A stretch of DNA of 64,000 nucleotides from Candidatus Shapirobacteria bacterium (GCA_027039485.1 JALWDZ010000026.1:1093-65092), one strand, 5' to 3'. Numbered from the stretch's first letter, positions 9,543 to 62,602 are shown. Notes: generated by a model from the letters alone, not told the origin. A program made the numbers and translations.

Positions 9543-9554
9543 TAAAATCTATAT

Positions 9555-10070
9555 ATGGCCCAAAAGAATAACGCTGGTCACCAGCCGGGAGGACAAAAGC
9601 AAGCCTTCCTCGAGGCTTTGGCCAAGCAACAAATGTCGCAAGAGCAACAACGTCTGGAAATTCTCCGCCGGATGGCTTTTTTACGCCAAAAAGAAACTAT
9701 AGAAAAAAAATCATCACCCAACTTGCTTTACAATGCTAGCGAGCGGCAAACTAAAGAAGAAATTGCCGCCTTGCGCCAGGAAATCAAAAAACTAGCCAAA
9801 AAGGTAGTCCATGTCCAGGCCAATATTGACCGTGCTGTTAACCAAAGAGTTAGCCAGCCCAGCCGTTACGAACTAAGCTTCTGGCAGCATCTTCATCACT
9901 GGGTGCGTCAATTAGTAGAAAAAATAGACAGCGTAGACCTTTGGTTGCAAGAATGGAATCGGCGGCGGCGTAAGAAAGGTGACTTTTGGGGTATCGTTAG
10001 CAATAAGAAGCGCGGCGGGGCCCAATTCCTTCTTTCCGCCGAGCACTATATGACCCGCTCGGCCGGTTAA
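9555..10070 (+). CDS. hypothetical coiled-coil protein
   Basis: Gln/Lys/Arg-rich helical ORF, no family recognised. Confidence 0.3.
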   Translation: MAQKNNAGHQPGGQKQAFLEALAKQQMSQEQQRLEILRRMAFLRQKETIEKKSSPNLLYNASERQTKEEIAALRQEIKKLAKKVVHVQANIDRAVNQRVSQPSRYELSFWQHLHHWVRQLVEKIDSVDLWLQEWNRRRRKKGDFWGIVSNKKRGGAQFLLSAEHYMTRSAG

Positions 10071-15597: not shown

Positions 15598-15800
15598 AGG
15601 GGAGACAAACAAATCATAATTACCAAAATCCTAAATTCTAAACTCTAAACAATGTTCAAATGACCAAAATTCAAATGTTCAAAACATCTTTGTCATCTTT
15701 CTTTTGTTTTGGTCATTTAATCATTGGGTAATTGTTTAGGATTTGGGTCATTAGGATTTAGGATTTGTTATTCCTAGTTTCATTTTTCATTTTTCGCTTT
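15598..15800. repeat. nested-palindrome MITE/REPIN-like element, short copy without core
   Basis: Left arm caaatcataattaccaaaatcctaaa...ttcaaatgttcaaaaca is the inverted complement of right arm tgttttggtcattt...ggatttaggatttg. Same family as the copies at 19.6, 33.5, 56.9 and 58.2 kb. Confidence 0.8.
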
Positions 15801-18876: not shown

Positions 18877-19632
18877 TTATCTTACCACAAAAGGGCGCAG
18901 GCGGCGGATTCCCATTTGTTTCAGTGGTTTTTTTACTTTATCTAGCAACGACTGGCCCGTTTTTAGTTTTTCAGGCCATCTTTGTTGCCAAAGTGGTTGG
19001 CCCGGCTTAACAATTTCGATAAAACCTAAATGGGGACCGGTGATCTTGGTTGTGCTGCTGGAATGAGCATAAGCTATTTTCTGGGCTTGTTGGCCGACTA
19101 CTACTAAAACATGGTCGATTCTCTTTTCGCTTTCAATTTGGGCCGGGATAATGTCGCCTTCGCGAATATTTTCTGGTAAAGGCTCTACAAAAATGGAATT
19201 TTTTTCATTAGTTAGGGCCCAGGTGTTAAAACGCCGCCGGGGATTTCGGCTAAAGCCCGGAGCCCATTGGAGCCCCTGCCAAAAACCCGGATGTAAAAAG
19301 TCCAGAATTTGGAACGCAAAACCAGAGCAATCGAGACCAATTCGCTTTTGTTGCATAAAACGGCGAATTTCCAAAGCTGGCATTTTTTGCCAATCCAACC
19401 CTTGCTGGCGCAGTTTAGCCAGAGTCACCCGGCGAATTTCGGCAGGAGTGCCCTTCCCTCCAAACGGCCCCTGAATGCGCCGCCCGAATTTCAGAAAACG
19501 GTTGCGCCAATAGGGAATTCTCACCGTCTTCTCGCCAAAAGGGAGAGCAAAAAAAGAGTTTAAAAATTGCTGCAAATCTTCTCTCATTTCTTTTAGAATA
19601 ACATACCCATAATAAAAATAACCAAATTCCAA
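18877..19632 (-). CDS. NlpC/P60-family peptidase-like protein (no obvious signal peptide)
   Basis: Catalytic Cys motif GLDCSGF, followed about 75 aa later by DHVLVVVG (the His region). Confidence 0.5.
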   Translation of the reverse strand: MEFGYFYYGYVILKEMREDLQQFLNSFFALPFGEKTVRIPYWRNRFLKFGRRIQGPFGGKGTPAEIRRVTLAKLRQQGLDWQKMPALEIRRFMQQKRIGLDCSGFAFQILDFLHPGFWQGLQWAPGFSRNPRRRFNTWALTNEKNSIFVEPLPENIREGDIIPAQIESEKRIDHVLVVVGQQAQKIAYAHSSSTTKITGPHLGFIEIVKPGQPLWQQRWPEKLKTGQSLLDKVKKPLKQMGIRRLRPFVVR

Positions 19633-20020
19633 ATCTCAAATTCCAACCCCCCCTTCGGTAGGGGCAGGCAAATCCTAATTACCAAAATCCTAAACCCTAA
19701 ACAATGTTCAAATGATCAAAATTCAAATGTTCAAAACATTTCTTTCCTGTCATCCCGCCCTTTCTTATGAAAGAGCGGGATCTAGCCGAAGGTGCATGGA
19801 ATACTATATATTGCGCTCGCTCTGCTCGCTAGATTTTTACCCCGACGTTACGTCTTGGGGCTTCGCTAACGCTCAGAATGACATAGTTTAAGTGTTTTGG
19901 TCATTTGGTCATTTGGATTTTGAGCATTATTTAGGATTTAGGTCATTAGGATTTTGGATTTGTTATTCCTAGCTCCTAGTTCTTAGTTCCTAGTTCCATT
20001 TTCTAACTCCTAGACTCTTA
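19630..20020. repeat. nested-palindrome MITE/REPIN-like element with GC-rich core (core in reverse orientation)
   Basis: Arms caaatcctaattaccaaaatcctaaaccctaaac.../...ggatttaggtcattaggattttggatttg. Core gtcatcccgcc...cggggtaaaaatctagcgag...ctcagaatgac. 3' cctag-rich tract. Confidence 0.8.
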
Positions 20021-20602: not shown

Positions 20603-21317
20603 CGACTATCACCAACTGGAAAAGCGCCTACGTGTCCACTTCCGCCAGCCAGAATTGCTAGAAAAGGCCCTTACTCACCGGTCCTGGCTAAACGAGCACC
20701 GCCAGAAAACAACCACTTCTAACGAACGACTAGAATTTCTAGGCGATGCAGTTTTAGAACTTTGGAGCAGCAGCCGCCTTTATGCTCTTTTTCCCCAATA
20801 TCCGGAAGGCCAGTTAACTAATATCCGCTCCGCCCTGGTTCGGACCCAGACTTTAGCCCTGGCGGCCAAAAAGCTTCATTTAGGCAAATATTTGCGCTTG
20901 AGCCGCGGCGAGGAAAAAACTGGCGGCCGGCAAAACCCTTCCCTTTTAGAAAATACTTTTGAAGCTTTAATCGGAGCTATTTACGCCGATCAGGGAATAG
21001 AAGCAGCTTTTAAATTTCTAGACCGCCAGCTATTGGCAAAATTAAAACTATTTGGCAAAAAGGGTAATATTAAAGACGCCAAAACCATTTTCCAGGAAAT
21101 TGCCCAAGAAAGAATGAAAATTACCCCCCATTACCAAATTCTTGCCAGCCAAGGCCCAGAGCACCAAAAAATTTTTACCGCCGGGGCTTTCCTAGAGACT
21201 AAACTAATAGCTAAAGGACAGGGACATTCTAAACGCGAAGCCGAAGAGGCTGCCGCCAAAAAAGCATTGACTATCTTTAAGAAACAAAGTAGAATTAGCA
21301 ACAAGAAAAATGCTTAA
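20586..21317 (+). CDS. rnc: ribonuclease III
   Basis: RNase III signature ERLEFLGDAVLEL plus C-terminal dsRBD. Start set at MNAANN. Confidence 0.85.
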   Translation: MNAANNDYHQLEKRLRVHFRQPELLEKALTHRSWLNEHRQKTTTSNERLEFLGDAVLELWSSSRLYALFPQYPEGQLTNIRSALVRTQTLALAAKKLHLGKYLRLSRGEEKTGGRQNPSLLENTFEALIGAIYADQGIEAAFKFLDRQLLAKLKLFGKKGNIKDAKTIFQEIAQERMKITPHYQILASQGPEHQKIFTAGAFLETKLIAKGQGHSKREAEEAAAKKALTIFKKQSRISNKKNA

Positions 21318-21528
21318 AATAAAACTTTTCCAGCGCGGCAAAAAACACCAGCGAACTTACCGCATCGTTGTTGCCGAAGCCCGCTCAAAGCGAGACGGCA
21401 AATTTGTTGCCGACCTTGGTTTTTATAACCCGCAAACAAAGGAATTGCATTTTAACAAAAAGGAATTAGCTAAATGGCAAGAGCAGGGAGCTCAATTAAC
21501 CGCGGGAGTACGCCGCCTTTTATCATGA
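21310..21528 (+). CDS. rpsP: 30S ribosomal protein S16
   Basis: MLKIKLFQRGKKHQRTYRIVVAEARSKRDGKF... typical S16. Confidence 0.9.
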   Translation: MLKIKLFQRGKKHQRTYRIVVAEARSKRDGKFVADLGFYNPQTKELHFNKKELAKWQEQGAQLTAGVRRLLS

Positions 21529-21758
21529 AAGAGTTGATTAGTTTCTTACTCCAGCTTATTTTTGGCCCCAAAAGCAAAGAAATTGACATCCTCATCACAC
21601 CAGAGGAAAACGGCCAACTTATTACCTTGGCAGCTCCAGAGGAACTCTTGGGCCAACTCATTGGCCGCGCTGGCCAAACTGCCCGGGCCCTAAAAATCCT
21701 TCTCGCCCTCCAAAGCAAAGGCCAACAAAGCTTCCGCCTTGATATTAAGAAAAAATAA
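21474..21758 (+). CDS. KH-domain RNA-binding protein (UPF0109/YlqC-like)
   Basis: LIGRAGQTARALKILL KH GxxG-like motif. Conserved position downstream of rpsP. Confidence 0.65.
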   Translation: MARAGSSINRGSTPPFIMKELISFLLQLIFGPKSKEIDILITPEENGQLITLAAPEELLGQLIGRAGQTARALKILLALQSKGQQSFRLDIKKK

Positions 21759-21760
21759 TT

Positions 21761-22528
21761 TTAATAGAAAATATTACTTTTGCCCGCCGGGTTAGCGCTG
21801 GGGCTAGAAGACAAGGAAGGTTGTGGAGAAGAATAATGGAAAGTTTCTAGTTTTTTTAATACTTCCTTCTCTCCCTTAGTCAAAACAAAATCAGCAGGCT
21901 TTATCGAGATTGCCTTAAAGCGCGCGACATGACCGGCAAAATATAAACGCACCGAAAGCCTCAGCCGTAATAATTTAGCATCCTTGCCTTGGCTGTCAAA
22001 GCTAAATTCAATTGGCTGCAAAAGCGGTAAATTTGTTTCCAAATCCTTTAAAAAAGGTAAAAGATTTTTTCTTTCGCCAACAATTTCTAAATCAAGACGG
22101 GCTGTCGCCGGCGCTGATTTTTTGCGTGCCGAAGGTGTCGCTGTTTCTATCTGGCCCAAATCAAAACGCAAACTCTCAATCAAAAAACCATTGCGTTGGC
22201 AAGGAGCATCTAAAGCGAAGAGGACGCTAGCAATATCAGTTTGGCGTGGAAATGCTCTTTGCACCCAAAGAAGAGAATTTTTTAAGCTTTGCCAATCCCA
22301 ATTTTGCAAAACAGCCAGCTCTTCGGTTTTCTGGCGCAATATTTTTTGCTTTAGGCGCCACTGTTGCCATTCCTGCCTAGTTTGTTTTACAGCCGGCACC
22401 CAAAAAAGGAGCCCCGCCAAAAAAACTAAGCCCACTAAACCCCAATACAGCAAGAGGCGGCGAACAATTTTATTTTTAGATGCCAACGAAAACAGGCGCA
22501 GTTGCATCTCCAACCTATTCCCCATCAT
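21761..22528 (-). CDS. pilO: type IV pilus assembly protein PilO-like
   Basis: Single N-terminal TM plus coiled coil, downstream of pilM-pilN in the same operon. Confidence 0.4.
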   Translation of the reverse strand: MMGNRLEMQLRLFSLASKNKIVRRLLLYWGLVGLVFLAGLLFWVPAVKQTRQEWQQWRLKQKILRQKTEELAVLQNWDWQSLKNSLLWVQRAFPRQTDIASVLFALDAPCQRNGFLIESLRFDLGQIETATPSARKKSAPATARLDLEIVGERKNLLPFLKDLETNLPLLQPIEFSFDSQGKDAKLLRLRLSVRLYFAGHVARFKAISIKPADFVLTKGEKEVLKKLETFHYSSPQPSLSSSPSANPAGKSNIFY

Positions 22529-23076
22529 GAGTGATGCTTTTGAATAGATAAGACAAAAAAAGTTTTTGCCGGCGTTACCGTTAAAGTTTGTAAAGTAATT
22601 ATTCTGAATTGAGCAGTCGGGAAAAACGCCCGAAACGTATCCAACTTTTTCTCAAAGGCAGCTAAATCCAGCAAATCAGGCCAATAACCCTGGAGAATCA
22701 TTGTCTGCCCCTGCATTTTGAAATTGCTAATTACTGCCTTCTGACCCACAAATTTTTGAATAACAGCCAAATAAAAACTATATTTATCTCTCTTTTGCAA
22801 AACGGTACCCGCCTTACGCAATTCTACTTTTAAATATTTTTGTTGGGCTAATTGGGGAGCAAAAGTAGCCTTAGCTTGCTCTCTGGCTTGAATCTGACTT
22901 TGTAGTCGAACAAGCTGCTTTTTCAGCCAAAAATTACCTCCAATTGTTAATAAAACTAGAATAAGAAAGCTAAGAGCCAAAATAAGTGCCCTGGGGCGCC
23001 AGAAATTCAACCAGCGCCAGTATTGCAAATCTTCCCGTGTCCGCCCACCCAAAAGATTTACTCTATTCACCGCCAC
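22525..23076 (-). CDS. pilN: type IV pilus assembly protein PilN-like
   Basis: VNLLGGR start, single TM, coiled coil. Translationally coupled to pilM. Confidence 0.5.
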   Translation of the reverse strand: MAVNRVNLLGGRTREDLQYWRWLNFWRPRALILALSFLILVLLTIGGNFWLKKQLVRLQSQIQAREQAKATFAPQLAQQKYLKVELRKAGTVLQKRDKYSFYLAVIQKFVGQKAVISNFKMQGQTMILQGYWPDLLDLAAFEKKLDTFRAFFPTAQFRIITLQTLTVTPAKTFFVLSIQKHHS

Positions 23077-24074
23077 TGCCTTTCCGCCAAACCAATAGCC
23101 GCAGAAAAATCTAATTTTCTTTTCAAAAAGTTTTTATCTATTGTCTCTGCTAGCTGCATATTTGCCATCGGGGCGCCCATCTGCACTTCAATACCAATAG
23201 TCCTGATCAATTCGTCAGATAGCTTGGGCAGAGCGCTTTCTTGCCCAGAAAGAATAATCAAATCTACCGTTTCATGCCACTCCTCGTTAAAGGCAACCAT
23301 CGTTTGTCGGGCATCTTCGATCAAGCGTGTTAACAAAGGCAAAAGCGCTTTGCGCACTTTATTCTGCCATTTACCTTTTTCAAAACCATAAACATTTTTA
23401 TATTCTTGGGCCTTTAAATTATCCATTCCTAGGGCAACGCTTACGGCCCGGGTAAAGGCTTGGCTACCCACCGGAACAATACGGCTAAGATATGGCACGG
23501 CATCTTTAACTACTAAAAACAATGTTTCCTGCTGCTTGATGTCAAAAATAAGCGTCGGTTTGGCCCGAGCAGGCACCAAGGCGCGCGTTAAGGCAATGCC
23601 TTCATTTTCAACCGCCAGAGGCACCAAATCAGCCAAAGTTAATAATTGTTGAAGCCCATCCAAAAAGCTTTTTCGGGTGGCCACCACCCAAACATATTGT
23701 TGGCCATTATCCATCTTCTTAACTACCTGATAATCCATTTGAGCCTCAGTCACTGGATAGGGAATAAAAGTATCAGCCTCATAACGCAGGGCTGAAGCAA
23801 TCTCTTCCTCTTTCATCGGCGGCAAAACAACCAAACGACTAATAACCATTTTCTCAGGAATACCAACTACCACCTGTTTTGTTTTTATATTGCCAAGGGC
23901 CAAAAGTTTGTTAAGCTCGGGGAGAAGATTTTTTCTATTCCGCTCGTTAGCAAAATCGAGGCCAAAGTTGTTAACAACTTCTTCGAGAACAGTTAGGGTA
24001 AAATTAACGCCGCTTTTTTTTACCTGGGCAATCTGCAAAGCATTGTTGGTCAAATTGAGGCCAAAGTAATCCAT
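23067..24074 (-). CDS. pilM: type IV pilus assembly protein PilM (actin-like ATPase fold)
   Basis: 335 aa, N-terminal LGLDIG-like start (FGLNLTNNALQIAQV), actin/FtsA-like fold. Confidence 0.7.
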   Translation of the reverse strand: MDYFGLNLTNNALQIAQVKKSGVNFTLTVLEEVVNNFGLDFANERNRKNLLPELNKLLALGNIKTKQVVVGIPEKMVISRLVVLPPMKEEEIASALRYEADTFIPYPVTEAQMDYQVVKKMDNGQQYVWVVATRKSFLDGLQQLLTLADLVPLAVENEGIALTRALVPARAKPTLIFDIKQQETLFLVVKDAVPYLSRIVPVGSQAFTRAVSVALGMDNLKAQEYKNVYGFEKGKWQNKVRKALLPLLTRLIEDARQTMVAFNEEWHETVDLIILSGQESALPKLSDELIRTIGIEVQMGAPMANMQLAETIDKNFLKRKLDFSAAIGLAERQWR

Positions 24075-24111
24075 TTACTTCAGTATAAACAATTGGTAAA
24101 GCGAAAATCAA

Positions 24112-24609
24112 TTAAATTTTTTTTCCCAAAATCTTGTGAAGATAAAAATGATCAGACTTTTTGCCCACCGTGCCCATAAGCGATTTTTCCTGCACCTCGA
24201 GATCAAAATTGATAGTAATTTCTGGATATGATGAGCTTAACGGTTGACAGCGAGCTTGGAAATTTTTACATTTCACCGTTTTCGGAGTGAGGGCACTACT
24301 ATTAGAAGCAACGGCCCCGTTTTGGCAGCTAAAAACAGTGATCTCCCCATCTCGCCCCCAAAATGTGATTCTGTCTCGGTTAGCGCCATCGCAAAGGTCG
24401 GGGTGGTCGGCAAAACGTTGCAAGTAATCCTCTATAGCTAAAATTGCTGTACTCCCGCTTTGCCGCAACAATTTGCTGCTCAGCGCCTTATTTTGCCCTC
24501 GCAAGCTCATTACAAAAATAGCCGCTCCTACAGTTGCTAAAATAGCAAAAGTGCTAACAACAACTAAATTCTCAATCAGAGAAAAGCCCAGATGCCTTTT
24601 CATTGCCAA
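24112..24609 (-). CDS. prepilin-type minor pilin/pseudopilin
   Basis: Class III signal with cleavage motif G|FSLIE followed by a hydrophobic helix. Confidence 0.55.
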   Translation of the reverse strand: MAMKRHLGFSLIENLVVVSTFAILATVGAAIFVMSLRGQNKALSSKLLRQSGSTAILAIEDYLQRFADHPDLCDGANRDRITFWGRDGEITVFSCQNGAVASNSSALTPKTVKCKNFQARCQPLSSSYPEITINFDLEVQEKSLMGTVGKKSDHFYLHKILGKKI

Positions 24610-25010
24610 TTACTATAAACAGTAGCCATTTCTACCATGCCTCTTTTGCTCCACCAAACTTTCACCTTGACGGTCACATCTTTTTGCGTACCGCTAATAT
24701 GACAGTTTTGATAACAGGTTTGACAGGTGAAATATTTATAGCCCTGGCAATTTGTTTCTTGTTGGCATTTATTACAAAGAGTGCTCAAATTACCCCACCA
24801 AGATTGGTCTAGTTTTGCCACCCTAATATCCTCTAGCTGCTTTTTAGCTAATTGGGTGGCTAAAGTTTTTTGTCGGTTAAACCGAGCAGTGGCAATAATA
24901 AAAGTAGTTGCCGCTGCTAATCCCGAAAGCAAAAGGGCAGAAATAGAAATTACAAAAACTACTTCCAGCAAGGATTGACCTTTTTCTTTCTGGCCTATTT
25001 TTATTGACAT
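24600..25010 (-). CDS. prepilin-type pilin-like protein
   Basis: KGQSLLEVVFVISISALLL N-terminal prepilin helix, Cys-containing C-terminus. Confidence 0.5.
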   Translation of the reverse strand: MSIKIGQKEKGQSLLEVVFVISISALLLSGLAAATTFIIATARFNRQKTLATQLAKKQLEDIRVAKLDQSWWGNLSTLCNKCQQETNCQGYKYFTCQTCYQNCHISGTQKDVTVKVKVWWSKRGMVEMATVYSNWQ

Positions 25011-25570
25011 GCCTGCTCCTCGATAGTTCCCACCTTATATAAATTCACTTGGCGGCAACGGCCCTGGTAATAAAGACGAAAATAGCTTGGGTCGGTGGTG
25101 ACAGCACTTAACCGTCCTTCTAAAGCCAAAAAACGAAGCTTTTGGTTGTCGTCGCCATCACGATAAAGCCAATTACTCAAAGACTGCCATTCTTTTTCGC
25201 TAATAGTTTGCCAGGGCTGCTGGTAGTTATCGCAAACTTGGCGGTATTTCAAACTTTTATTAACGCTCCAAATTTCATAATAAGCCAATTCGTTGCATTG
25301 GCGGCTTTTTACACCGGCTCGCGCTTGACTGCGAAGCATGGCCAGATCTGTCGCCAAAACCTGAGCAGCCATATCCACCTGTTTTTTGGCCAAATAAAAG
25401 CGATAACCAGCAAAACTAAAACCTATTAGAAGACTAGCAATAGCTAAAGATACTAAAAGCTCTAAAAGGGTAAGGCCTTTCATTCTACGGCGGCGAAAGA
25501 TGATAATTGCAAATTGTGTGCCAATTATTACCACACCGAGGATTACGAGGACAACCATTGCGATTCCCAC
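25001..25570 (-). CDS. prepilin-type pilin-like protein
   Basis: MKGLTLLELLVSLAIASLLIG prepilin N-terminus. Confidence 0.55.
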   Translation of the reverse strand: MGIAMVVLVILGVVIIGTQFAIIIFRRRRMKGLTLLELLVSLAIASLLIGFSFAGYRFYLAKKQVDMAAQVLATDLAMLRSQARAGVKSRQCNELAYYEIWSVNKSLKYRQVCDNYQQPWQTISEKEWQSLSNWLYRDGDDNQKLRFLALEGRLSAVTTDPSYFRLYYQGRCRQVNLYKVGTIEEQACQ

Positions 25571-25946
25571 TAGATTCTAACGCAGCGCAAAGTACATAAT
25601 CAGCACCATTAGCAGAATAATAATAATAGTGTTGCCCCCCCTTAGGATCCTGAGGGAATTCGTGCATATAGGTAACACCATTACAAGTCCAAGCTCCTGA
25701 TGCAGGGGGTAAGCAGGCTCGACAAGTACCTCCATCGTTATAAGGATAACAGCCAATATCGCTGCGAATCATTTCCAAAACTGACCGGATTTGCTCTAAA
25801 TCCGCTTTTCTCTTATCATCCCGAGCCTTCCGGCCAGCCGATTGATAAGACACCAAGGCCACCGAAGACAGAAGAATAATAATCGTGGTTACTACCAATA
25901 ACTCGATAAAAGTAAAGCCTTTCTTCATTGAAGATTGCTCAAACAA
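25485..25946 (-). CDS. type IV pilin (tandem paralog 1)
   Basis: KKGFTFIELLVVTTIIILL, then RKARDDKRKADLEQIRSVLEMIRSD and a Cys-rich C-terminal domain. Confidence 0.7.
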   Translation of the reverse strand: MFEQSSMKKGFTFIELLVVTTIIILLSSVALVSYQSAGRKARDDKRKADLEQIRSVLEMIRSDIGCYPYNDGGTCRACLPPASGAWTCNGVTYMHEFPQDPKGGQHYYYYSANGADYVLCAALESSGNRNGCPRNPRCGNNWHTICNYHLSPP

Positions 25947-26329
25947 AAATACTTTCCTCTGCCATAATTACAACCATTATTAGTGCCAGTACTTCGGGCA
26001 TTACCATTACTGGCCTCTAGTTGCGCACAAATACAATAAGAGTCGCTTGTACACTTCCAAGAATAATTTCGGGAAGGTTTAGGATCCCTAGGCAAACCAC
26101 CAGGCAAATAAGTATTTCCCGGATTACAACCAACCGGATATCGGTCATGTACCGCCCGGTATTGCTCTAAGGCTTTTTGGACCGCTTTAATATCCTGGCG
26201 GCGGCGGGCATCTCGGGCCCGTTTTTGGGCTGCCGAGTAAGAAGTAGAAATAACAGCCATTAAAACAGCGATAATAGAGATAACTACCAACAATTCAAAG
26301 AGAGTAAAACCGGCATTCTTTTTCATCAT
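25925..26329 (-). CDS. type IV pilin (tandem paralog 2)
   Basis: NAGFTLFELLVVISIIAVLMAV, then KRARDARRRQDIKAVQKALEQYRAVHDRYP. Confidence 0.7.
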   Translation of the reverse strand: MMKKNAGFTLFELLVVISIIAVLMAVISTSYSAAQKRARDARRRQDIKAVQKALEQYRAVHDRYPVGCNPGNTYLPGGLPRDPKPSRNYSWKCTSDSYCICAQLEASNGNARSTGTNNGCNYGRGKYFCLSNLQ

Positions 26330-26811
26330 TGACTACATACATAATAACAGTTTTCGGAACAGTTTGCTTGGCAAATCGTTTCCGGACAACGCTGGCTTGA
26401 ATCGCTAATATCTACATCACCGCCATTTTCTAATTCAGCCCAGAGGCGAAAGCCATCGCCATCATTACTCACACAATAGCCGTAATGGTGGTTGCCTCCA
26501 AGAGGGTCATCAGGCACTTTGGTCATGTAGGTAGTATTGCCTTCTTGCCACTGGCTGCCAAAAAGTAGTGGGGGAGTGGGATAAGCCTGATGGTCGTTGT
26601 AATAAAGGCGAAGGCTATTTTTAATTTCCCAAAGATCTTGCTTCCGCTGGCTATCCCGGGCCCGCTGCCGAGCCGACATTAAATTAGGCAAAAGTATCCC
26701 GGCTAAAATAGCAATAATCGAGAGGACCACTAAAAGCTCAATGAGGGTAAACCCTTTTCGTCTCAGAAGGGTAAACCCTTTTTGCTTCGGAAGGGTAAAT
26801 CCTTTTTTCAT
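26326..26811 (-). CDS. type IV pilin (tandem paralog 3)
   Basis: KGFTLIELLVVLSIIAILAG, then RQRARDSQRKQDLWEIKNSLRLYYNDHQAYP. Confidence 0.7.
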   Translation of the reverse strand: MKKGFTLPKQKGFTLLRRKGFTLIELLVVLSIIAILAGILLPNLMSARQRARDSQRKQDLWEIKNSLRLYYNDHQAYPTPPLLFGSQWQEGNTTYMTKVPDDPLGGNHHYGYCVSNDGDGFRLWAELENGGDVDISDSSQRCPETICQANCSENCYYVCSQ

Positions 26812-27362
26812 GGAAGGCGAACGTTAGAACTAGTAACGCCAAAATTATATGTCTCACCGGCGCATTGGTAGCCATTATTATTATACTTATTATAATCAGG
26901 GTCATGGCTATTTTCCAAAACAGAAAAAAGTTTAAAATAGGTTCCGTCCGATTGGTAGCAATAGTGAAAACTACGCCGCGGATCCTGCGGTAACCGCTTC
27001 ATATAAACAACAGTGGCGTTATTAATATTTTCCTCGAAAGCATCTCCCCAATCTAGAACTGTATTTTGGGGACAATGGCGGTTAACAACAATTTTACCTG
27101 TCTCTTGGCCAGAACAATCAGTGCTTAAGGGGTAAGAGCGGTGATCGTTATAATACATTTCTAAGGCTCGGGCAATATTACTTAAGTCTGCCTTCCGTTG
27201 GGCATCGCGTGCTTTCTGCTGGCTAGTATGGTACTGACCAAAGCCAATGCTTGCCAAAATACCCAAAATAGCCATCACCACCAACAGTTCTATTAAAGTA
27301 AACCCTCTCCTCATTTTTTTATTGACCACAAGTGGCATCATAACAACAAGCGGTGCCCTCAC
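26808..27362 (-). CDS. type IV pilin (tandem paralog 4)
   Basis: RRGFTLIELLVVMAILGILASIG, then QKARDAQRKADLSNIARALEMYYNDHRSYP. Confidence 0.7.
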   Translation of the reverse strand: MRAPLVVMMPLVVNKKMRRGFTLIELLVVMAILGILASIGFGQYHTSQQKARDAQRKADLSNIARALEMYYNDHRSYPLSTDCSGQETGKIVVNRHCPQNTVLDWGDAFEENINNATVVYMKRLPQDPRRSFHYCYQSDGTYFKLFSVLENSHDPDYNKYNNNGYQCAGETYNFGVTSSNVRLP

Positions 27363-28026
27363 TATTACATCTATACTCTACACCAGGACAACAAGTCGAG
27401 CAAGTATCTGGCAAGCAGTAATGGTTATTTTCTCCCCCGCAAGTTGGCAAATAACATCCTGAGGGGAGGGTTGGGACAGGCGTGGGGGTAAGCATTTTTG
27501 TCGGTACAGGCGTGTTTGTTGGTTTATTGTTGACTTGCCCTGGGGGAGTAATATTGGGACTTGCTAAACCATAGGTATACTCTTGACCGTCTACTTGGCA
27601 ACCATCAGCGCAATATTCTTTTGGCCTAGGATAAGCCAAATTGGCATAAATAGCGAACCAGGTAGGACAATCGTTATCCTCAACGACAATTTTATAAGGT
27701 TGATGGCTTTGGGGATCACAGGGAACGATGTCTAACCAGGGGCGAAAATCATGGCTGTCGCAATGTTGCAACTTAACTAAATCCTCGCCATGAGGATAAC
27801 AACCATTGTCATTATAATAATCCTCCATGGCTCGTTGTAATTCGTGCAAATCGCGGCGCCGGCGGCCGTCATCAGCTTTACGAATTTGGGCTAAATAATT
27901 CATCAAAAAGATAATGGCCAAAATAACAATAATGGCCATTGCTATTAAAATTTCTACCAGAGTTACTCCTTGTTGGTTGCCTTTTGCTACCATGGCAGCA
28001 ATTTTAAAATATAATCGCCCCACCAC
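27319..28026 (-). CDS. type IV pilin-like protein with Thr/Pro linker and Cys-rich C-terminal module
   Basis: GVTLVEILIAMAIIVIL, then RKADDGRRRRDLHELQRAMEDYYNDNGCYP. Next a TPVPTKMLTPTPVPTLP linker, and an about 45 aa tail with 11 Cys. Confidence 0.6.
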   Translation of the reverse strand: MVGRLYFKIAAMVAKGNQQGVTLVEILIAMAIIVILAIIFLMNYLAQIRKADDGRRRRDLHELQRAMEDYYNDNGCYPHGEDLVKLQHCDSHDFRPWLDIVPCDPQSHQPYKIVVEDNDCPTWFAIYANLAYPRPKEYCADGCQVDGQEYTYGLASPNITPPGQVNNKPTNTPVPTKMLTPTPVPTLPSGCYLPTCGGENNHYCLPDTCSTCCPGVEYRCNSEGTACCYDATCGQ

Positions 28027-28742
28027 CAGCTAATTAGAGCGGCGGCAACTAGAAACGGCCCAAAAGCAACTGCCGTTTTCCAATGGGCTCGGCGTCGCCA
28101 GAGAAGGAACCCGGCCCACAGCCCTCCGGCCAAAAAAGCTAGATAAAACAAAAATAGGAGGCGCTGCCAACCCAACCAAAGGCCAAGGACAAAAACTAAC
28201 TTAGCATCACCCAACCCCATTCCTTTTCGACCAGTAATCAGATAAAGGAAAAGAAAGAAGAAAAGCCCGCCAAAAGCAGCTAAAAAGTCCAACCGGGGGA
28301 GGAAAAGCACCAAAACCAGCAGGGAAAGGAGAAAAACATCGGGAATAATTTGGTAATGAGCGTCAAAAAAGAAAATGGCTAAGAGAAACCAAACCAAAAG
28401 CAAATACATTCCCAGCCACGGCCAGGCTAAATTTTGCTGCCGCCACCAAACAAAAGTAGCCAAAAACAATAGACCGCCTAAAAGTTCTAGAATAAACCAC
28501 TCGGGATTTACTTTAGCCCCGCAGGTCCGGCACCGGCCGCGCAACAAAAGGAAAGATAAAAGAGGGATATTTTCCCACCAAGCTAACTGGCGATTACAAT
28601 TGTCGCAGTGGGAACGGCCCCACAAATCCAACCCTCCCTTTTGGGGATAACGACTAATTAAAACACCCAAAAAGCTCCCCCCGCTCGCCCCAAGAGCAAA
28701 CAGGAGGAGCTCCCAAAATATCATCTTTACTGGGGCACACAT
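27987..28742 (-). CDS. pilD: prepilin peptidase (A24 family)
   Basis: N-terminal Zn-binding CDNC...CRTCGA, catalytic GMGLGDAKL motif, about 7 TM. Confidence 0.8.
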   Translation of the reverse strand: MCAPVKMIFWELLLFALGASGGSFLGVLISRYPQKGGLDLWGRSHCDNCNRQLAWWENIPLLSFLLLRGRCRTCGAKVNPEWFILELLGGLLFLATFVWWRQQNLAWPWLGMYLLLVWFLLAIFFFDAHYQIIPDVFLLSLLVLVLFLPRLDFLAAFGGLFFFLFLYLITGRKGMGLGDAKLVFVLGLWLGWQRLLFLFYLAFLAGGLWAGFLLWRRRAHWKTAVAFGPFLVAAALISWWWGDYILKLLPW

Positions 28743-29383
28743 TTAAACAATGAATTTGTTCTGTCTGTCCAAGTAGCACTATCTATTTGGCTCTGACTGG
28801 TAACTGCGGTAATCTGGGTTGGCACCCCATCGGCGGTAGTGATGCCCAAATCCTTAAGCTTTGAACTTAGTTTTCTGTTTGCCTTTGCTTTAGGAATAAA
28901 GCAAACATAAACGGCTCCGCCATTGCCTGCTTCTTTAAAAAGATAGAGTCTATTCAAATCACTCCTGATATTATCGGCAAAAGGATCCTTTTGGGCAAAA
29001 GAGGCCTTTAATTCATCCGTCTTTATCAACTCTCCATAATTGCCATTAGCATCCTTGCAGCTGGAAACTTCAGCATTATAAGAACTGCCCGCACAAACAC
29101 CAAAGCCCGGCATTTTGCTCGTTAAACCCAAAACCTGGGACTCGTCAGCTCCATTGCCTTCGCCCCAAACTTCATCATCCCACGGATAATATTCTTGGGA
29201 AGCATAGTACCGCTCCAAGGCGCTCAAAACTTCGGCGGCATCATTTTGAAATTTCGCATCCCGAGCCTTATTGGTTTGTTCTACTGGATTTAAAGTAGAA
29301 AGAACCGCCACCGACAAAATAGCAATTAAGGAAATAACAATCAATAACTCAACTAGAGTAAAACCTTGTTTCAGTTGTTTCAT
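28727..29383 (-). CDS. pilA: type IV pilin, candidate major pilin (immediately downstream of pilC)
   Basis: KQGFTLVELLIVISLIAILSVAVL, then NKARDAKFQNDAAEVLSALERYYAS, 218 aa. Confidence 0.65.
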   Translation of the reverse strand: MKQLKQGFTLVELLIVISLIAILSVAVLSTLNPVEQTNKARDAKFQNDAAEVLSALERYYASQEYYPWDDEVWGEGNGADESQVLGLTSKMPGFGVCAGSSYNAEVSSCKDANGNYGELIKTDELKASFAQKDPFADNIRSDLNRLYLFKEAGNGGAVYVCFIPKAKANRKLSSKLKDLGITTADGVPTQITAVTSQSQIDSATWTDRTNSLFKCVPQ

Positions 29384-29399
29384 CTTTTCACCCCCTTTC

Positions 29400-30602
29400 C
29401 TAAAATTGGCTGGTTAAGTTATAAATTGGCATAATCACGGCAAAAACTAAAAAGCCAACTCCAATACCTAACACTATCATGATAAGTGGCTCAATAGCAC
29501 TTGTCAAGGTTTTAACCCGTTGATCAGCTTCTATTTCAAAAAAATGAGCCAGGCGGAAAAGAATGGTATCCAATTTGCCTGTCTGTTCGCCGGTGGCAAC
29601 CATTTCTACCAGAATATCGGGGAAAATCATTTGTTCCCGCAACGACTCAGAAAGAGGAAAGCCCTTCTCGATCCGTTGGTCGACCCGTTCAAGAGCTTTC
29701 TGGTAAACCATATTACCGGCGGCTCGACTAATAGTTGCCACCCCATCTACCAAAGGCACCCCGGTATTAACCATCATCCCTAAAGTCCGGGTAAGATTGG
29801 TAAGAAGAGTGGCTTGCAAGAGAGGGCCTAAAATGGGTATCCGCAATTTTATTTCATCATACCGATAGCGCATCTCTGGTTGGCGCATTAAAACCTTCCC
29901 GGCCACCACTCCCGCCACTGCCAAGAAAGGTAAAAGCCAAACCAAAACGCCGCTTAAGCTGGCAATATCCATCAAGACGCGCGTTTCCCAAGGCAGTTGG
30001 GTATTAAATTCATTGTAAAGATTGGCCATCTTAGGAATGACAAAAGTTACCACAATAAAAATAACCCCTCCCATACCCACCAAAATAATCGCTGGATAAA
30101 TCATTGCCCCTTTTACCTTAGCCAAAAATTCTTGCCGTTTTTCCAAAGTATCCGCCAATTGCGTGAGCACCTTTTCTAAAACCCCAGCTTCCTCGCCGGC
30201 ACTGACTGAAGCAATGTAAATATCGCCAAATACCTCGCGATGCTTTTTTAGGGCCGCCGTAAAAGAGGAACCACCCTCGATATCGCGGAGAAGATCGCCA
30301 ATAACCAACTGCAACTTGCCGCTTTCCTGTTTTTCCAGTAAGGACAACGCTTCAGTCAATGGCAACCCGGCCTCAATCATCGTTGCCAGTCGGCGAGTAA
30401 AGGAGGCTACCTGCCCTCCCGAGACCCGGCTAAAGTGAAGGCGCAGCTTTTGCCAAAACGAAAGCTGATAAGGTTTAATGTCAACTAAAACCAAGCGGCG
30501 CTTTTTTACCAAAGAAATTGCTTCCCGCAAGTTGCGCGCCTCTACCAAGCCTTTATTGACTTTGCCTTGCCAATCTCGGGCTCGAAAAACGTATTTTTTC
30601 AT
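29400..30602 (-). CDS. pilC: type IV pilus inner-membrane platform protein PilC (GspF family)
   Basis: Two GspF repeats, 3 TM blocks, 400 aa. Confidence 0.85.
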   Translation of the reverse strand: MKKYVFRARDWQGKVNKGLVEARNLREAISLVKKRRLVLVDIKPYQLSFWQKLRLHFSRVSGGQVASFTRRLATMIEAGLPLTEALSLLEKQESGKLQLVIGDLLRDIEGGSSFTAALKKHREVFGDIYIASVSAGEEAGVLEKVLTQLADTLEKRQEFLAKVKGAMIYPAIILVGMGGVIFIVVTFVIPKMANLYNEFNTQLPWETRVLMDIASLSGVLVWLLPFLAVAGVVAGKVLMRQPEMRYRYDEIKLRIPILGPLLQATLLTNLTRTLGMMVNTGVPLVDGVATISRAAGNMVYQKALERVDQRIEKGFPLSESLREQMIFPDILVEMVATGEQTGKLDTILFRLAHFFEIEADQRVKTLTSAIEPLIMIVLGIGVGFLVFAVIMPIYNLTSQF

Positions 30603-30604
30603 TT

Positions 30605-31693
30605 TTACTCCGGTTTTATTATCGGCTGGCGGCGCTGCTGCTGTAAACTGCGCATTAATTCCTTAGGCCGGATAGCATATTCTTTGGCCACTTCAAGGCT
30701 AACGACCCCCTTATTAACCCAACTCGCCAAAGAAGTTTCCAAGAGGCGCATCCCCACTTCAGCTGAAGTTTGGATAATATTGTCAATCATATGGGTTTTA
30801 TCCTCACGGATAGCCGTCTGGACAGCGTGGTTATTTAGAAGAAGTTCAATGGCCGGCACCCGCCCCGGCTTGATGGTTGGAATTAGGCGCTGGGAAATAA
30901 CCGCCAAAAGGCTGTTGGCCAATTGCATTCGCACTTGGGCCTTAGCTCCGGTCGGAAAAACATCAACAATCCGGTCAATTGTCTCCGCTGCCGAATTAGT
31001 GTGCAAGGTAGAAAAAACCAGATGGCCAGTTTCGGCTACTGTCAAAGCAGCTTTAATCGTTTCCAAATCGCGCATTTCGCCAATCAAAACTACATTAGGG
31101 TCTTCGCGCAAAGCTGAGCGGAGGGCATTGGTCCAGCTGAGAGTATCGGAGCCAATTTCTCGCTGGGAGAAAACCGACTTTATGTCTTTGAAAAAATACT
31201 CAATGGGGTCTTCAATCGTCACAATATGCTCGGCCCGCGTTTCGTTAATCTCCCCCAACATAGCGGCTAGAGTGGTCGACTTACCATGGCCGGTGGGCCC
31301 GGTTACCAAGACAAAGCCCTGTCGTTCCTGAGTCAGTTTCCTTAGAATTGGCGGCAAATTTAAATCGTCAAGGCGGGGAATATTGGGAGGAATCAAACGC
31401 ATCGCTATTGCCAGGGAATCGCGTTGAAAATAGAAATTGACTCGAAAGCGCGCCTGGTCTTGAAAGACATAAGAAGAATCCATTTCCCGCTTGTCAAGAA
31501 GTTCCTGATATCTCTTCTCGCCCAACATCACCTTGGCCATGGCCATAATCTCCTCCTTGGCCATCGGCGTACCCTCGGGCAAACTAAAAAGCTGGCCATT
31601 AACCCGCAACAGGGGCCGCGCTCCTGCCAAAAGGTGGACATCTGAAGCCTTGTCCTTCACCGCCAGCGAGAGAATAGCTGCTAACTTATCCAT
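30605..31693 (-). CDS. pilT: twitching-motility retraction ATPase PilT
   Basis: Walker A GPTGHGKSTT, Asp box, His box, 362 aa, no N-terminal GSPII domains. Confidence 0.85.
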   Translation of the reverse strand: MDKLAAILSLAVKDKASDVHLLAGARPLLRVNGQLFSLPEGTPMAKEEIMAMAKVMLGEKRYQELLDKREMDSSYVFQDQARFRVNFYFQRDSLAIAMRLIPPNIPRLDDLNLPPILRKLTQERQGFVLVTGPTGHGKSTTLAAMLGEINETRAEHIVTIEDPIEYFFKDIKSVFSQREIGSDTLSWTNALRSALREDPNVVLIGEMRDLETIKAALTVAETGHLVFSTLHTNSAAETIDRIVDVFPTGAKAQVRMQLANSLLAVISQRLIPTIKPGRVPAIELLLNNHAVQTAIREDKTHMIDNIIQTSAEVGMRLLETSLASWVNKGVVSLEVAKEYAIRPKELMRSLQQQRRQPIIKPE

Positions 31694-31694
31694 G

Positions 31695-33479
31695 CTAATA
31701 TTTAGCCACCCGGAGAACTTCCTCCACGGTGGTAATACCCTCTAACGCCTTCAAATAGCCATCCTGCATCATCGTTACCATGCCCTCCTTTACAGCCGCT
31801 TTTTTAATTTCCTCGGCCGGCGCTTGTTTAAGGATAAGCTGCATAATTGCATTAGTCACCGGCAAAGTCTCAAAAATCCCAATTCGACCGTAATAGCCGG
31901 TAAAGTTGCACCCCTGGCAGCCTTTGCCGCGGTAAAGCTTTGGTTGGTCACCGGCTTTGGGGGGCCAAAGCGGGCCAAGCACTTTTTTCATTCCTTCAAC
32001 CACTTTTTCTGGCGGCTGGTAACTTTCCTTACAGTCATTATGGATCCGGCGGACAATCCGTTGGGCAACCACTGCGTTCAAAGCAGAAACTAGCAAAAAG
32101 GGCTCAACCCCCATATCAATTAACCGTGGCGCAGCTCCGGCAGCATCGTTAGTATGTAGTGTCGAAAAAACCAAGTGGCCAGTAAGGGCTGCCTCAACCG
32201 CCAGTTCAGCCGTCTCTTTATCGCGAATCTCGCCAACCATAATAATATCCGGATCCTGGCGCAAAAACGAACGCAGGGCCGACGCAAAAGTAAGCCCCGC
32301 CTGGGGATTTACCTGGACCTGGTTAACCCCTTTGATGTGGTATTCAACCGGATCTTCGATAGTCATCACGTTAACTTTGGTAGTGTTAATCTTAGAAAGA
32401 ACTGAATAAAGAGTAGTCGTTTTCCCGGCTCCAGTTGGACCGCAGACCACAATCATTCCGTGGGGGCGGCTAATGGCCTCTTGCAAATCGCGGAGTGTTT
32501 TCCCCCGCAAACCTAATTCTGGCAAGTCGGGAATTTTTTGCGTTTTCTTCAAAAGCCGCATAACTACCTTTTCGCCATAGACAGTCGGTGCTGTCGAAAC
32601 CCGGACGTCGATTTCCTGCCCATCACTGCGAAAAGTAAAGCGCCCATCCTGGGGCACCCGCTTTTCATCGATTTTCATATCGGCCAAAATTTTAATTCGG
32701 GAAACAACGGCATCATGGATCCGCCGCGGCAAAATAAGTTTCTCTTGCAAAATGCCGTCAATGCGGTAACGGACCCGGGTATCGCCCTCTTGGGGTTCAA
32801 TATGAATATCCGAAGCCCGGGCCTTGACCGCAAATTGCAAAATTGTCGAAACAACCTTGGCAATTGGCGCCTCGTGGATAATATTCTCCAGATGGTTAAC
32901 ATCCAAGACATTCTTTTGATAAGTTTTAGCCGTTTCCCCTAGGGCCTTAGTCACCTCGGCGGTAATTTCCTGGTTATAATGTTCGTCGATTGTCTCCTGG
33001 ATAAGCTTTTTATCAGCCAGGTAAGGCTCTATTTTTAAGCCTGTTTTCTTTTCCAAAAACTCCACCGTCTCCAAATCTAAAGGATTGGCCATAGCCACCG
33101 CCAGCTTTTTCTCTTTAGGGTCATAACGAAAGGGCACCACCAGATAATACTCGGCCACGCTTCGGGGAATAAAAGTAATGCTTTGGGGATCGAAAGCAAT
33201 TTCTTCTAAATCAGCATAGGGAACGCCCAAAAACTTCGCCTTAGCAGCTAGCAATTTCTTGGTGGGGATTAGATTTTCTTCATGAATAATATCTTCCACA
33301 TTCTTGCCGGTTTGAATTGCCTTTAGTTGAATATTTTTTACCTGGGCTGGCGAGAGCAGCTTCTCCTGGGCCAGAACGTCCAAAAGCGAGTGGGGCAGTT
33401 TTGTTTCTTCCATCACTTCCATTATAAACAAAATAAATCCCAAATCACAAGCACCCTGCCCCGACGGACGTCGGGGCAA
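31695..33479 (-). CDS. pilB: type IV pilus assembly ATPase PilB (GspE family)
   Basis: N-terminal GSPII domain, Walker A GPTGAGKTTT, tetracysteine CQGC..., 594 aa. Confidence 0.9.
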   Translation of the reverse strand: MPRRPSGQGACDLGFILFIMEVMEETKLPHSLLDVLAQEKLLSPAQVKNIQLKAIQTGKNVEDIIHEENLIPTKKLLAAKAKFLGVPYADLEEIAFDPQSITFIPRSVAEYYLVVPFRYDPKEKKLAVAMANPLDLETVEFLEKKTGLKIEPYLADKKLIQETIDEHYNQEITAEVTKALGETAKTYQKNVLDVNHLENIIHEAPIAKVVSTILQFAVKARASDIHIEPQEGDTRVRYRIDGILQEKLILPRRIHDAVVSRIKILADMKIDEKRVPQDGRFTFRSDGQEIDVRVSTAPTVYGEKVVMRLLKKTQKIPDLPELGLRGKTLRDLQEAISRPHGMIVVCGPTGAGKTTTLYSVLSKINTTKVNVMTIEDPVEYHIKGVNQVQVNPQAGLTFASALRSFLRQDPDIIMVGEIRDKETAELAVEAALTGHLVFSTLHTNDAAGAAPRLIDMGVEPFLLVSALNAVVAQRIVRRIHNDCKESYQPPEKVVEGMKKVLGPLWPPKAGDQPKLYRGKGCQGCNFTGYYGRIGIFETLPVTNAIMQLILKQAPAEEIKKAAVKEGMVTMMQDGYLKALEGITTVEEVLRVAKY

Positions 33480-33930
33480 ATTCTAATTACCAAAATCCTA
33501 ATCCGCCAGCTGGCGGACTAAACAAATTCAAATGACCAAAATTCAAATGCTCAAAAACATTGAAACTGTGTCATTCTGAGCGTTAGCGAAGCCCCAGGAC
33601 GTTCCGCCAGCTGGCAGAGTCGGGGTAAAAATCTAGCGAAGCGCATTAATCCCACACCTGACTAACTCTCATGCGCTCGCTCCGCTCGCTAGATCTTTAC
33701 CCCTACCGAAGGTGGATTTATTCCACCGAAGGGGGGCTTCGTCGCTTCGCTCCTCAGGATGACAAGGGGAGATGTCTTTTGTTTTGGTCATTTGATCATT
33801 AGGTAATTTGGTTATTGTTTAGGATTTGGGTCATTAGGATTTAGGATTTTGCTCAACCTAGTTCCTAGCTCCATTTGAACTTTTCACTTTCCCCTTCTTT
33901 CTCACTTTTCACTTTTCACTTAAACTTTTC
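33478..33930. repeat. nested-palindrome MITE/REPIN-like element, longest copy, core present as an inverted duplication
   Basis: Arms aaattctaattaccaaaatcctaatc.../...ggatttgggtcattaggatttaggatttt. Internal 230-nt imperfect hairpin built from two inverted copies of gtcatYctgag...gaagcccc...ggggtaaaRatctagcga. 3' cctag/cactttt tract. Confidence 0.8.
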
Positions 33931-56889: not shown

Positions 56890-57250
56890 ACCTACCTGTG
56901 CAGGCAGGCAATACTAAAATCCTAAATTCAAAATCCTAAACTATAAACAAATTCAAATGACCAAAATCCAAATGTTCTAAACATTTCTTTTTCTTTGCCT
57001 TTTTCTTTTGTTTTGGTCATTTGGTTATTTAATCATTTGGTAATTGTTTAGGATTTGGGTCATTAGGATTTAGGATTTGTTTGTGATTTGGTGTTTGGGA
57101 TTTGGAATTTGGTGCTTTTTTGACCTAGTTCCTCCAACCTAGCTCTTAGTTCCACTTTAACTTCTTTTCCACTTTACACTTGAATTTTTCACTTCCTTAG
57201 CCCTTCGCCCTTAGCTCTTAGCCCCTTCTTACCTAGTTCCTAGTTCCAAT
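56890..57250. repeat. nested-palindrome MITE/REPIN-like element (no GC core; degenerate CCTG...CAGG palindrome at left end)
   Basis: Arms ...aaaatcctaaattcaaaatcctaaactataaac.../...ggatttgggtcattaggatttaggatttg. Contains gtgtttgggatttggaatttgg, the same k-mers as the GT inserts. Long cctagttcctag tract. Confidence 0.8.
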
Positions 57251-62594: not shown

Positions 62595-62602
62595 CTAATT
62601 CG

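Follow-up and report, generated by a model that had tools for sequence, protein, structure and literature searches.

A 64,000-nucleotide stretch of DNA from Candidatus Shapirobacteria bacterium (GCA_027039485.1, JALWDZ010000026.1:1093-65092), henceforth termed the window, carries a cluster of genes for a type IV pilus (T4P), a system described as well conserved in Patescibacteria (PMC11623550). The cluster consists of 16 consecutive open reading frames (ORFs) on the minus strand at 21761-33479, arranged in the order pilB-pilT-pilC-pln1-pilD-pln2 to pln9-pilM-pilN-pilO, i.e., with one pilin gene before pilD and eight behind it (Table 1). All 16 are present at coordinates given beforehand in an initial annotation of this DNA, and the gene types and strand proposed there are borne out by ORF positions, family matches, and orthologues. 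Distances across the 15 junctions range from -16 to +37 nt, with overlaps at nine; the description of the operon as largely translationally coupled is therefore fair. Here, we argue that the locus is very probably a complete operon for a retractile type IVa pilus (T4aP) of monoderm, outer-membrane-free design. This reading is carried by gene content and order, by catalytic and processing motifs that are intact, and by conservation in relatives; functions are assigned by homology throughout.

Table 1. Genes and other features of the pilus operon and its upstream border, in window coordinates
Feature	Coordinates	Strand	Description	Evidence
Repeated element	33473..33866	.	intergenic, upstream of pilB	repeat families D2, D4, I2, I7
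Promoter-like site	33421..33450	-	sigma-70-like match just upstream of the pilB ATG	TTGTGA-18-TATAAT, 10/12; consensus match only
pilB	31695..33413	-	extension ATPase	PF00437 T2SSE 437.6 bits plus MshEN; TIGR02538/TIGR02533 E~1e-175
pilT	30605..31693	-	retraction ATPase	TIGR01420 pilT_fam 442.3 bits (cutoff 319.1)
pilC	29400..30602	-	platform protein	PF00482 T2SSF, two stretches, E=7e-60
Promoter-like site	29479..29507	-	sigma-70-like match in the pilC 3' end, ~95 nt upstream of pln1	TTGACA-17-TATCAT, 11/12; consensus match only
pln1	28727..29383	-	prepilin, 218 aa	leader MKQLKQG/FTLVE; N_methyl 30.9 bits; passes class III test
Hairpin and U-tract	28670..28714	-	directly after the pln1 stop, inside the pilD 5' end	21 bp; dG -37.6 kcal/mol, z=-6.9
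pilD	27987..28742	-	prepilin peptidase / N-methyltransferase	A24_N_bact and Peptidase_A24
pln2	27319..27993	-	modular GspG-like pilin	N_methyl 28.8 bits; TIGR01710 GspG E=9e-8
pln3	26808..27314	-	GspG-like paralogue	N_methyl 39.8, T2SSG 23.7 bits; TIGR01710 E=4e-16 over 19-149
pln4	26326..26811	-	GspG-like paralogue, triplicated leader (KGFTL x3)	N_methyl 39.4, T2SSG 24.0 bits
pln5	25925..26329	-	GspG-like paralogue	N_methyl 34.4 bits; paralogy
pln6	25485..25928	-	GspG-like paralogue	T2SSG 27.3, N_methyl 22.6 bits; TIGR01710 E=8e-15
pln7	25001..25483	-	minor pilin, first gene of the divergent block	N_methyl 26.9 bits
pln8	24600..25010	-	minor pilin, Gln at +1 (G/QSLLE)	N_methyl 21.0 bits; passes class III test
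pln9	24112..24603	-	minor pilin	N_methyl 23.8 bits; passes class III test
pilM	23067..24074	-	actin-like cytoplasmic alignment protein	PF11104 PilM_2 99.7 bits; TIGR01175 133.2 (cutoff 133)
pilN	22525..23076	-	divergent PilN	position, topology, motif, orthologues; below HMM thresholds
pilO	21761..22528	-	divergent PilO	family profile; ~60-aa C-terminal extension

The operon recurs in related contigs. L008 (GCA_054021735.1) and L009 (GCA_015485895.1) hold the same 16 genes with nine pilins each; pln6 of L009 was overlooked in gene calling and was located with tblastn (79% identity). The contig L012 (GCA_027007615.1) starts within pilD and from there to pilO has the identical order with all eight post-pilD pilins. 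The pilin count is therefore a conserved trait of the clade.

Motor, platform and alignment genes

Annotation with hidden Markov models (HMMs), a check suggested at the outset, matched PilB, PilT, PilC, PilD, and PilM as well as the pilins through N_methyl, and gave no direct match for PilN and PilO. The expected motifs are intact: PilB contains Walker A (GPTGAGKT), Walker B (DPDIIMVGEIRD), and the His box, PilT contains Walker A and B, the His box, and the AIRE motif, and PilD contains two CxxC motifs together with the catalytic motifs IPD and GLGDAK. Three transmembrane (TM)-like segments are found in PilC and none in PilM. Translation of pilB probably starts at the ATG at 33413, which yields 572 aa as on the identical contig L005, rather than at the TTG at 33479. 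Among species representatives, the nearest relatives of PilM occur in metagenome-assembled genomes (MAGs) of Paceibacterota and Saccharibacteria at 22-27% identity, and in one Clostridia MAG.

PilN and PilO have no Pfam or NCBIfam match above threshold and no PDB match by sequence, and word-indexed homology searches with either returned only the query proteins themselves. An exhaustive HMMER search with PilO yielded 164 relatives among 1.84 billion representatives. Among the 60 aligned members of this family, 23 match Pfam PilO (PF04350) and 22 match T2SSM_b, and the family profile detects the solved PilO structures of Myxococcus xanthus (3jc8, E=5e-11) and Pseudomonas aeruginosa (2rjz, E=0.011); on account of the profile and the Pfam matches of its relatives, the window protein is a confirmed divergent member of the PilO family. 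Its best non-self match in the whole library is 35% identical, and three of the top matches (P0004, P0005, and P0006) represent PilO from L008, L009, and L007. The 60 aligned sequences were too diverse to serve as the query for a locus search, which with an alignment of 6 led to one metagenome locus. In the C-terminal ~60 aa (window 21761-21960), the family shows a conserved L..E...L..L..F segment and, in 36 of the 60 sequences, a near-terminal R-(E/D)-N-P-F motif that is degenerate (SNIFY) in the window protein.

The ORF at 22525-23076 is supported as PilN by a circumstantial but coherent set of sequence features. Its overlap is 10 nt with pilM and 4 nt with pilO, and its product begins with MAVNRVNLLGG and continues with one TM segment and a long helix or coiled coil. 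A single-sequence AlphaFold2 (AF2) model, of low confidence, places an alpha-beta-beta-alpha-beta-beta topology behind the TM segment, and its top Foldseek matches include the periplasmic domains of GspL, PilO, and PilN, all weak (E 0.01-0.06). The TM region also matches GspL weakly (E=0.006). PilN orthologues in the related contigs start with the canonical PilM-binding motif INLLP. The orthologue in L007 (34% identical, E=3e-19) starts with MTIINLLP and aligns with positions 5-76 of the 78 in the Pfam PilN model, at a sub-threshold E=0.029. A comparison of the window protein with a 3-sequence PilN alignment by hhalign was not significant.

The pilin repertoire

For a formal prediction of class III signals, we required G/[FVLQ][TS]L.E with Glu at +5 and then a hydrophobic 21-mer. 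The nine pilins all pass, and no other stop-to-stop segment of at least 100 aa does (107 in total, six frames). N_methyl likewise matches all nine ORFs, with pln8 at 21.0 bits against a cutoff of 21.2. The nine prepilin genes proposed initially hold up, and for several of them the true start lies later than the mechanical ORF start. The count had also been called high. Nine genes are confirmed; the number is not exceptional, being conserved in the relatives and set beside 13 pilins in four loci in Nanosynbacter lyticus TM7x (PMC11623550). Tandem arrays of at least five pilins also occur in the Patescibacteria MAGs L001 and L002.

The high count is due to pln2-6, GspG-like pilins expanded five-fold in tandem. 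These paralogues share the core ARD..R+.DL..I..ALE.YY.DH..YP...P.DP...Y...LE, and their profile matches the globular domains, beyond the N-terminal helix, of solved GspG, PulG, and EpsG (E=7e-9 to 5e-6). Their conservation in the relatives (63-81% identity) argues that each paralogue is functional. The last three pilins, pln7-9, are related neither to one another nor to pln2-6; pln7 shows weak PpdA/GspH-like similarity (PRK10506, E=5e-5 over 28-118; GspH, E=5e-4), and the Gln at +1 of pln8 is kept in its orthologues. Cysteines number 4, 16, 4, 6, 6, 8, 4, 6, and 4 in mature pln1-9. Such even counts in every mature pilin, together with the lack of any Cys in PilT, PilC, PilM, and PilN, suggest disulfide-bonded exported domains.

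The richest of these, pln2, is built from a pilin core, a Pro/Thr linker of variable length (~27463-27555), and a C-terminal module of ~47 aa (27322-27462) whose 10 Cys, including two CC doublets, are kept in all five module-bearing orthologues. Sequence comparison with Pfam and the PDB gave no match for this module. An AF2 model of pln2 built with six sequences reaches a predicted local distance difference test (pLDDT) score of 76-89 for the pilin core and below 35 at the C-terminus, and Foldseek returned only weak pilin matches. We regard the module as a candidate for a grafted adhesin; the linker may be a site of O-glycosylation. In pln4, a 24-nt tandem repeat present three times at 26744-26817 gives the leader MKKGFTLPKQKGFTLLRRKGFTLIE, in which the prepilin cleavage motif occurs three times; only the last copy has Glu at +5 and a hydrophobic helix after it. 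This triplication is strain-specific and absent from the L008 and L009 orthologues.

The best candidate for the major pilin is pln1, on cues that are indirect. It has the strongest Shine-Dalgarno sequence (AGGAAAGGGGGTGA) and follows pilC after a 16-nt gap, the only sizeable one before a pilin. It also has the highest Gly/Ala/Ser/Thr content (32%) among the nine pilins and is the most conserved of them (84-90% identity to relatives). It is syntenic with the lone pilin between pilC and pilD in the Clostridia MAG L004, and it resembles known pilins in the helix only. The promoter-like site in the 3' end of pilC is the best match in the locus. None of 200 shuffled sequences was as stable as the hairpin behind the pln1 stop codon. 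This hairpin is kept in L009, where a compensatory double change turns C-G into U-A, and is absent in L008; it may be an attenuator that separates expression of the major pilin from that of the genes downstream.

A divergent block at the end of the operon

Conservation along the operon is mosaic. Amino acid identity to L009, the closest relative, is 93% for PilB, 89% for PilT, 87% for PilC, 90% for pln1, 78% for PilD, and 74-81% for pln2-6. It then falls to 52% for pln7, 44% for pln8, 46% for pln9, 44% for PilM, 28% for PilN, and 33% for PilO, and stands at 60% for KH, 80% for S16, 73% for RNase III, and 81% for NusB, which are encoded beyond the operon. At the nucleotide level, identity is 40-59% across 21601-25500 and 71-84% on either side. 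The divergent block thus covers ~21761-25440 (3.7 kb: pln7-9 and pilMNO), with its edges at the pln7 N-terminus (~25440) and the pilO stop codon. Across the relatives, pln7 is 46-52% identical.

To express this relative to an outgroup, we define a sister ratio as the distance between the window (W) and L009, d(W,L009), divided by the mean distance of both to L008. Outside the block, the ratio is 0.29-0.73 in every part, with all 95% confidence intervals (CIs) at or below 0.83; within it (pln7-9, PilM, PilN+O), the ratio is 1.08-1.12 (CIs 0.93-1.34), and neighbor-joining (NJ) bootstraps never recovered W with L009. Parsimony-informative quartets in the block are too few for any specific alternative topology, so we make no claim for the NJ topology and limit ourselves to the lost sister signal. 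Neither GC nor GC3 of the block is anomalous. The pattern suggests that the 3.7 kb were replaced by recombination among deeply diverged alleles within the clade, or that they went through episodic rapid divergence in place. Were replacement correct, PilMNO could be mere passengers, situated between minor pilins under selection and the conserved flank.

We tentatively entertain, with more doubt than conviction, a functional version of replacement in which the last six genes would form an exchangeable specificity cassette that sets what the pilus binds and hence host range; deeply diverged versions of it would be in circulation in the clade and be swapped by recombination at the site between the conserved pilin array and the KH/S16 flank. 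If the cassette were swapped as a block, pilins for the tip or for priming would co-vary as a unit with the alignment complex on which they dock, and such co-variation of PilMNO with minor pilins, if true, would give T4P a new principle of organisation. There is a partial precedent in the pilin islands of P. aeruginosa, reportedly described by Giltner and colleagues in 2011 as allele groups of pilin and minor-pilin genes whose deeply diverged alleles are exchanged between close genomes. There, pilMNOPQ is conserved, the variable blocks being pilA with accessory genes and fimU-pilVWXY1E. Both systems have deeply diverged blocks of pilin genes, the exchange being only proposed in ours. They differ in that our variable block takes in pilMNO along with three minor pilins and leaves out the major-pilin candidate, which is conserved.

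A separate discontinuity is seen in L008, whose PilD (9288-10013) shares only 48-49% identity with its counterparts in the window and L009; its neighbors pln1 and pln2 are at 84% and 64-67%, respectively. The L008 pilD is possibly a second, independent replacement.

Envelope design and alternative readings

Pfam scans of some 55 ORFs, essentially all those of at least 110 aa in the window, revealed no Secretin, PilP, GspC/GspD, ComEA, ComEC, or DprA, in agreement with the initial statement that the window lacks PilQ and PilP. Behind pilO lie convergent genes for KH, rpsP (S16), rnc, nusB, and rpmF, and KH/S16/rnc/nusB occupy the same place in all five related contigs. Upstream of pilB, a repeat-rich spacer leads into a large cluster of glycosyltransferase, PMT, LCP, and flippase genes. 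A secretin in the continuation of the operon was sought in this context and in the alternative upstream context of L005 and L008, and none is present in either. The window also encodes an LCP (LytR_cpsA_psr) enzyme and PBP1A, which, with the lack of a secretin and PilP, fit a monoderm wall. No rRNA lies within the window; affiliation with the Candidate Phyla Radiation (CPR) is plausible.

From these parts, the pilus would work as follows. PilD would cut the short leader of the nine prepilins after Gly-1 and N-methylate residue +1, and PilB, an ATPase, would work through the platform protein PilC to pull pilins out of the membrane and polymerise them; PilT would depolymerise the filament and thereby retract it. 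PilM, cytoplasmic and actin-like, would clamp the N-terminus of PilN, and PilN and PilO, both presumably bitopic with a coiled coil and a ferredoxin-like domain, would form the membrane alignment complex. PilP and PilQ would not be needed because, in the proposed design, there is no outer membrane to cross. The likeliest filament subunit is pln1, with pln2-6 as accessory or alternative subunits and the mutually unrelated pln7-9 most likely as a priming or tip complex; pln2 would display its disulfide-rich C-terminal module on the Pro/Thr linker in the manner of a modular pilin with a grafted adhesin. Expression, the identity of the major pilin, tip location, and biological role are what we infer here from sequence. 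If cultivated Patescibacteria are a guide, the pilus would serve for attachment to hosts or surfaces and for twitching, possibly with capture of DNA.

Several known systems resemble the locus. In TM7x (Saccharibacteria; PMC11623550, PMC9894109), locus 1 encodes PilC, PilB, PilT, PilMNO, PilD, and five pilins and, like the window, combines the machinery with several pilins at a single place without a secretin. Its minor pilins resemble pseudopilins of type II secretion systems (T2SSs) and carry accessory domains (PMC11623550). T2SS pseudopilin-like pilins, a machinery far better conserved than the pilins, and C-terminal accessory domains on some minor pilins are common to both. TM7x locus 1 differs in its gene order, in having five pilins rather than nine, and in beta-propeller or lectin-like accessory domains where the largest in the window is a small 10-Cys module; PilM of a Saccharibacteria MAG is only ~22% identical to that of the window. 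The Microgenomates genome Ch65 has a single-locus T4P without pilQ, taken as evidence of a non-Gram-negative envelope (PMC7143001). We liken it by its parts list (major and minor pilins, PilD, PilB, PilT, PilC, and PilM in one locus); PilN and PilO were not reported there. The Clostridia MAG L004 has an identical pilB-pilT-pilC-pilin-pilD-minor pilins-pilM-pilN-pilO arrangement. That MAG has 1+4 pilin-like genes and ComFB where the window has 1+8, the window adding the five-gene GspG-like array, and its PilN and PilO are canonical by Pfam whereas those of the window are too divergent for the Pfam models. In monoderms, T4aP do without parts in an outer membrane, and adhesins are grafted onto modular pilins (PMC10191384); the Streptococcus sanguinis model described there agrees with the locus in the first respect and, as proposed for pln2, in the second.

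Some observations weigh against our reading of the operon or of its major pilin. PilN reaches no curated threshold, its AF2 model has a pLDDT of 64 with all Foldseek matches at E>0.009, and its VNLLG has Gly where the PilM-binding motif INLLP has Pro. The absence of a secretin and PilP is judged over ~64 kb and an alternative flank of ~8 kb, and the genome beyond may hold either of them or another pilus locus. Finally, pln1, with 211 mature residues, is large for a major pilin; those of TM7x are small (PMC11623550), and the syntenic pilin of L004 has 108 aa and is GspG-like. The same two comparisons favor a scheme in which one machine builds several filaments: pln2-6, or one of them, would also polymerise, and PilBCD-MNO would make at least two pili, for example a motility pilus alongside another that serves adhesion or the uptake of DNA. 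Two distinct pili are made by TM7x (PMC11623550), and pln2-6 are five conserved paralogues with the full GspG-like globular core typical of polymerising subunits. We nonetheless consider this scheme unlikely, since a strong Shine-Dalgarno sequence of its own, a promoter-like site, and a downstream hairpin are found only at pln1, pln2-6 form a translationally coupled, low-spacing array as is usual for minor pilins, and the window holds a single PilB/PilC set.

Resemblance of pilins to GspG, with weak similarity to ComGC, ComGE, and ComP_DUS, could instead indicate a Com-type pseudopilus for DNA uptake or a T2SS-like secretion piston rather than a pilus for motility or adhesion. PilB also scores high on the GspE and ComGA models, and DNA uptake has been proposed for CPR T4P (PMC7143001). 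Such a function may possibly come in addition to those of a T4aP; as an identity for the locus, it is very improbable. PilT is present above its curated cutoff, and PilM, PilO, and the putative PilN are present too, whereas Com pili lack PilT and PilMNO, and a T2SS lacks PilT and needs GspC/GspD (PMC10191384); the scans of window ORFs showed none of ComEA, ComEC, DprA, GspC, and GspD. We thus rejected a Com pilus (ComGA/ComGB/ComGC-G without PilT and PilMNO), the ComGA and ComGB models being below their cutoffs, and also a T2SS (GspC, the GspD secretin, GspL, and GspM without PilT), to which the resemblance is confined to the pseudopilin-like fold of pln2-6. Hardly credible, in our view, is a diderm T4aP with PilQ, PilP, and TsaP encoded elsewhere in the genome, as with the scattered pil genes of many Proteobacteria. 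The limited span over which the absence was seen speaks for it. In diderms, pilMNOPQ is a conserved unit and the other pil genes are dispersed; there, pilP-pilQ directly follow pilO, the place taken here by convergent KH/S16/rnc/nusB genes. Moreover, the LCP enzyme is typical of monoderm walls, the gene order is that of a Clostridia MAG, and the nearest PilM relatives belong to Patescibacteria MAGs, a group reported without pilQ (PMC7143001). With no match to PilQ (PF00263) or PilP in the ORFs scanned and housekeeping genes converging on pilO, this candidate was rejected as well, and the monoderm T4aP operon is the reading we retain.

The upstream border of the operon deserves a separate remark. 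The contig L005, which comes from an independent assembly, is 100% identical to the window over 20605-33765. All 20 differences fall within 33766-33854, inside the repeated element upstream of pilB, and the contigs differ beyond, where L005 continues with MFS, TACO1, DNA ligase, and Fic genes. Since L005 diverges within a repeat and L008 has the L005-type context, the junction between pilB and the glycosyltransferase cluster may be a rearrangement or an assembly join. Further copies of the element, which consists of AT-rich short repeats of the (A/T)GGATTT type around GC-rich palindromes, lie at ~15606-15780, 19604-19964, 56917-57120, and 58238-58660.

Elsewhere in the window, segments of ~100-200 nt at 50062-50499 and 53544-53942 are duplicated at 72-93% identity and 3.44 kb apart; they lie at the 5' ends of two GT2 glycosyltransferase paralogues and share the palindrome CCTGCCTGCGCAGGCAGG. 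At 61598-64000, repeats of 43 and 49 nt that contain palindromes (families D1, D3, and D8) form arrays around an ORF of 202 aa (61986-62594) with a Y1_Tnp (IS200-like) match, an arrangement that resembles repetitive extragenic palindromes with their associated tyrosine transposases (REP/RAYT). The large ORFs beside it (60598-61989 and 62603-64000) have no family match except weak TIG. GC skew on the plus strand is negative throughout the window (cumulative -3.5), and genes at 21.7-58 kb are almost all on the minus strand; a comparably strong strand asymmetry was highlighted for the Microgenomates genome Ch65 (PMC7143001).

As a pilus locus, the operon adds little. Such T4aP mediate host attachment and twitching in Patescibacteria and monoderms, secretin-less multi-pilin operons have already been described in both, and this one is ordinary for such organisms. 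Its use is as a clean, compact example that is fully syntenic and can be compared with four related contigs. Only the mosaic cassette and the Cys-rich modular pilin go beyond routine annotation. Both could repay study: the conserved, unclassified disulfide-rich module of pln2 is a candidate adhesin, and the mosaic conservation within one genome pair, with the motor and the major-pilin candidate at 87-93% and the minor pilins and PilMNO at 28-52%, gives a hint of the way in which ultra-small episymbionts might evolve host specificity.

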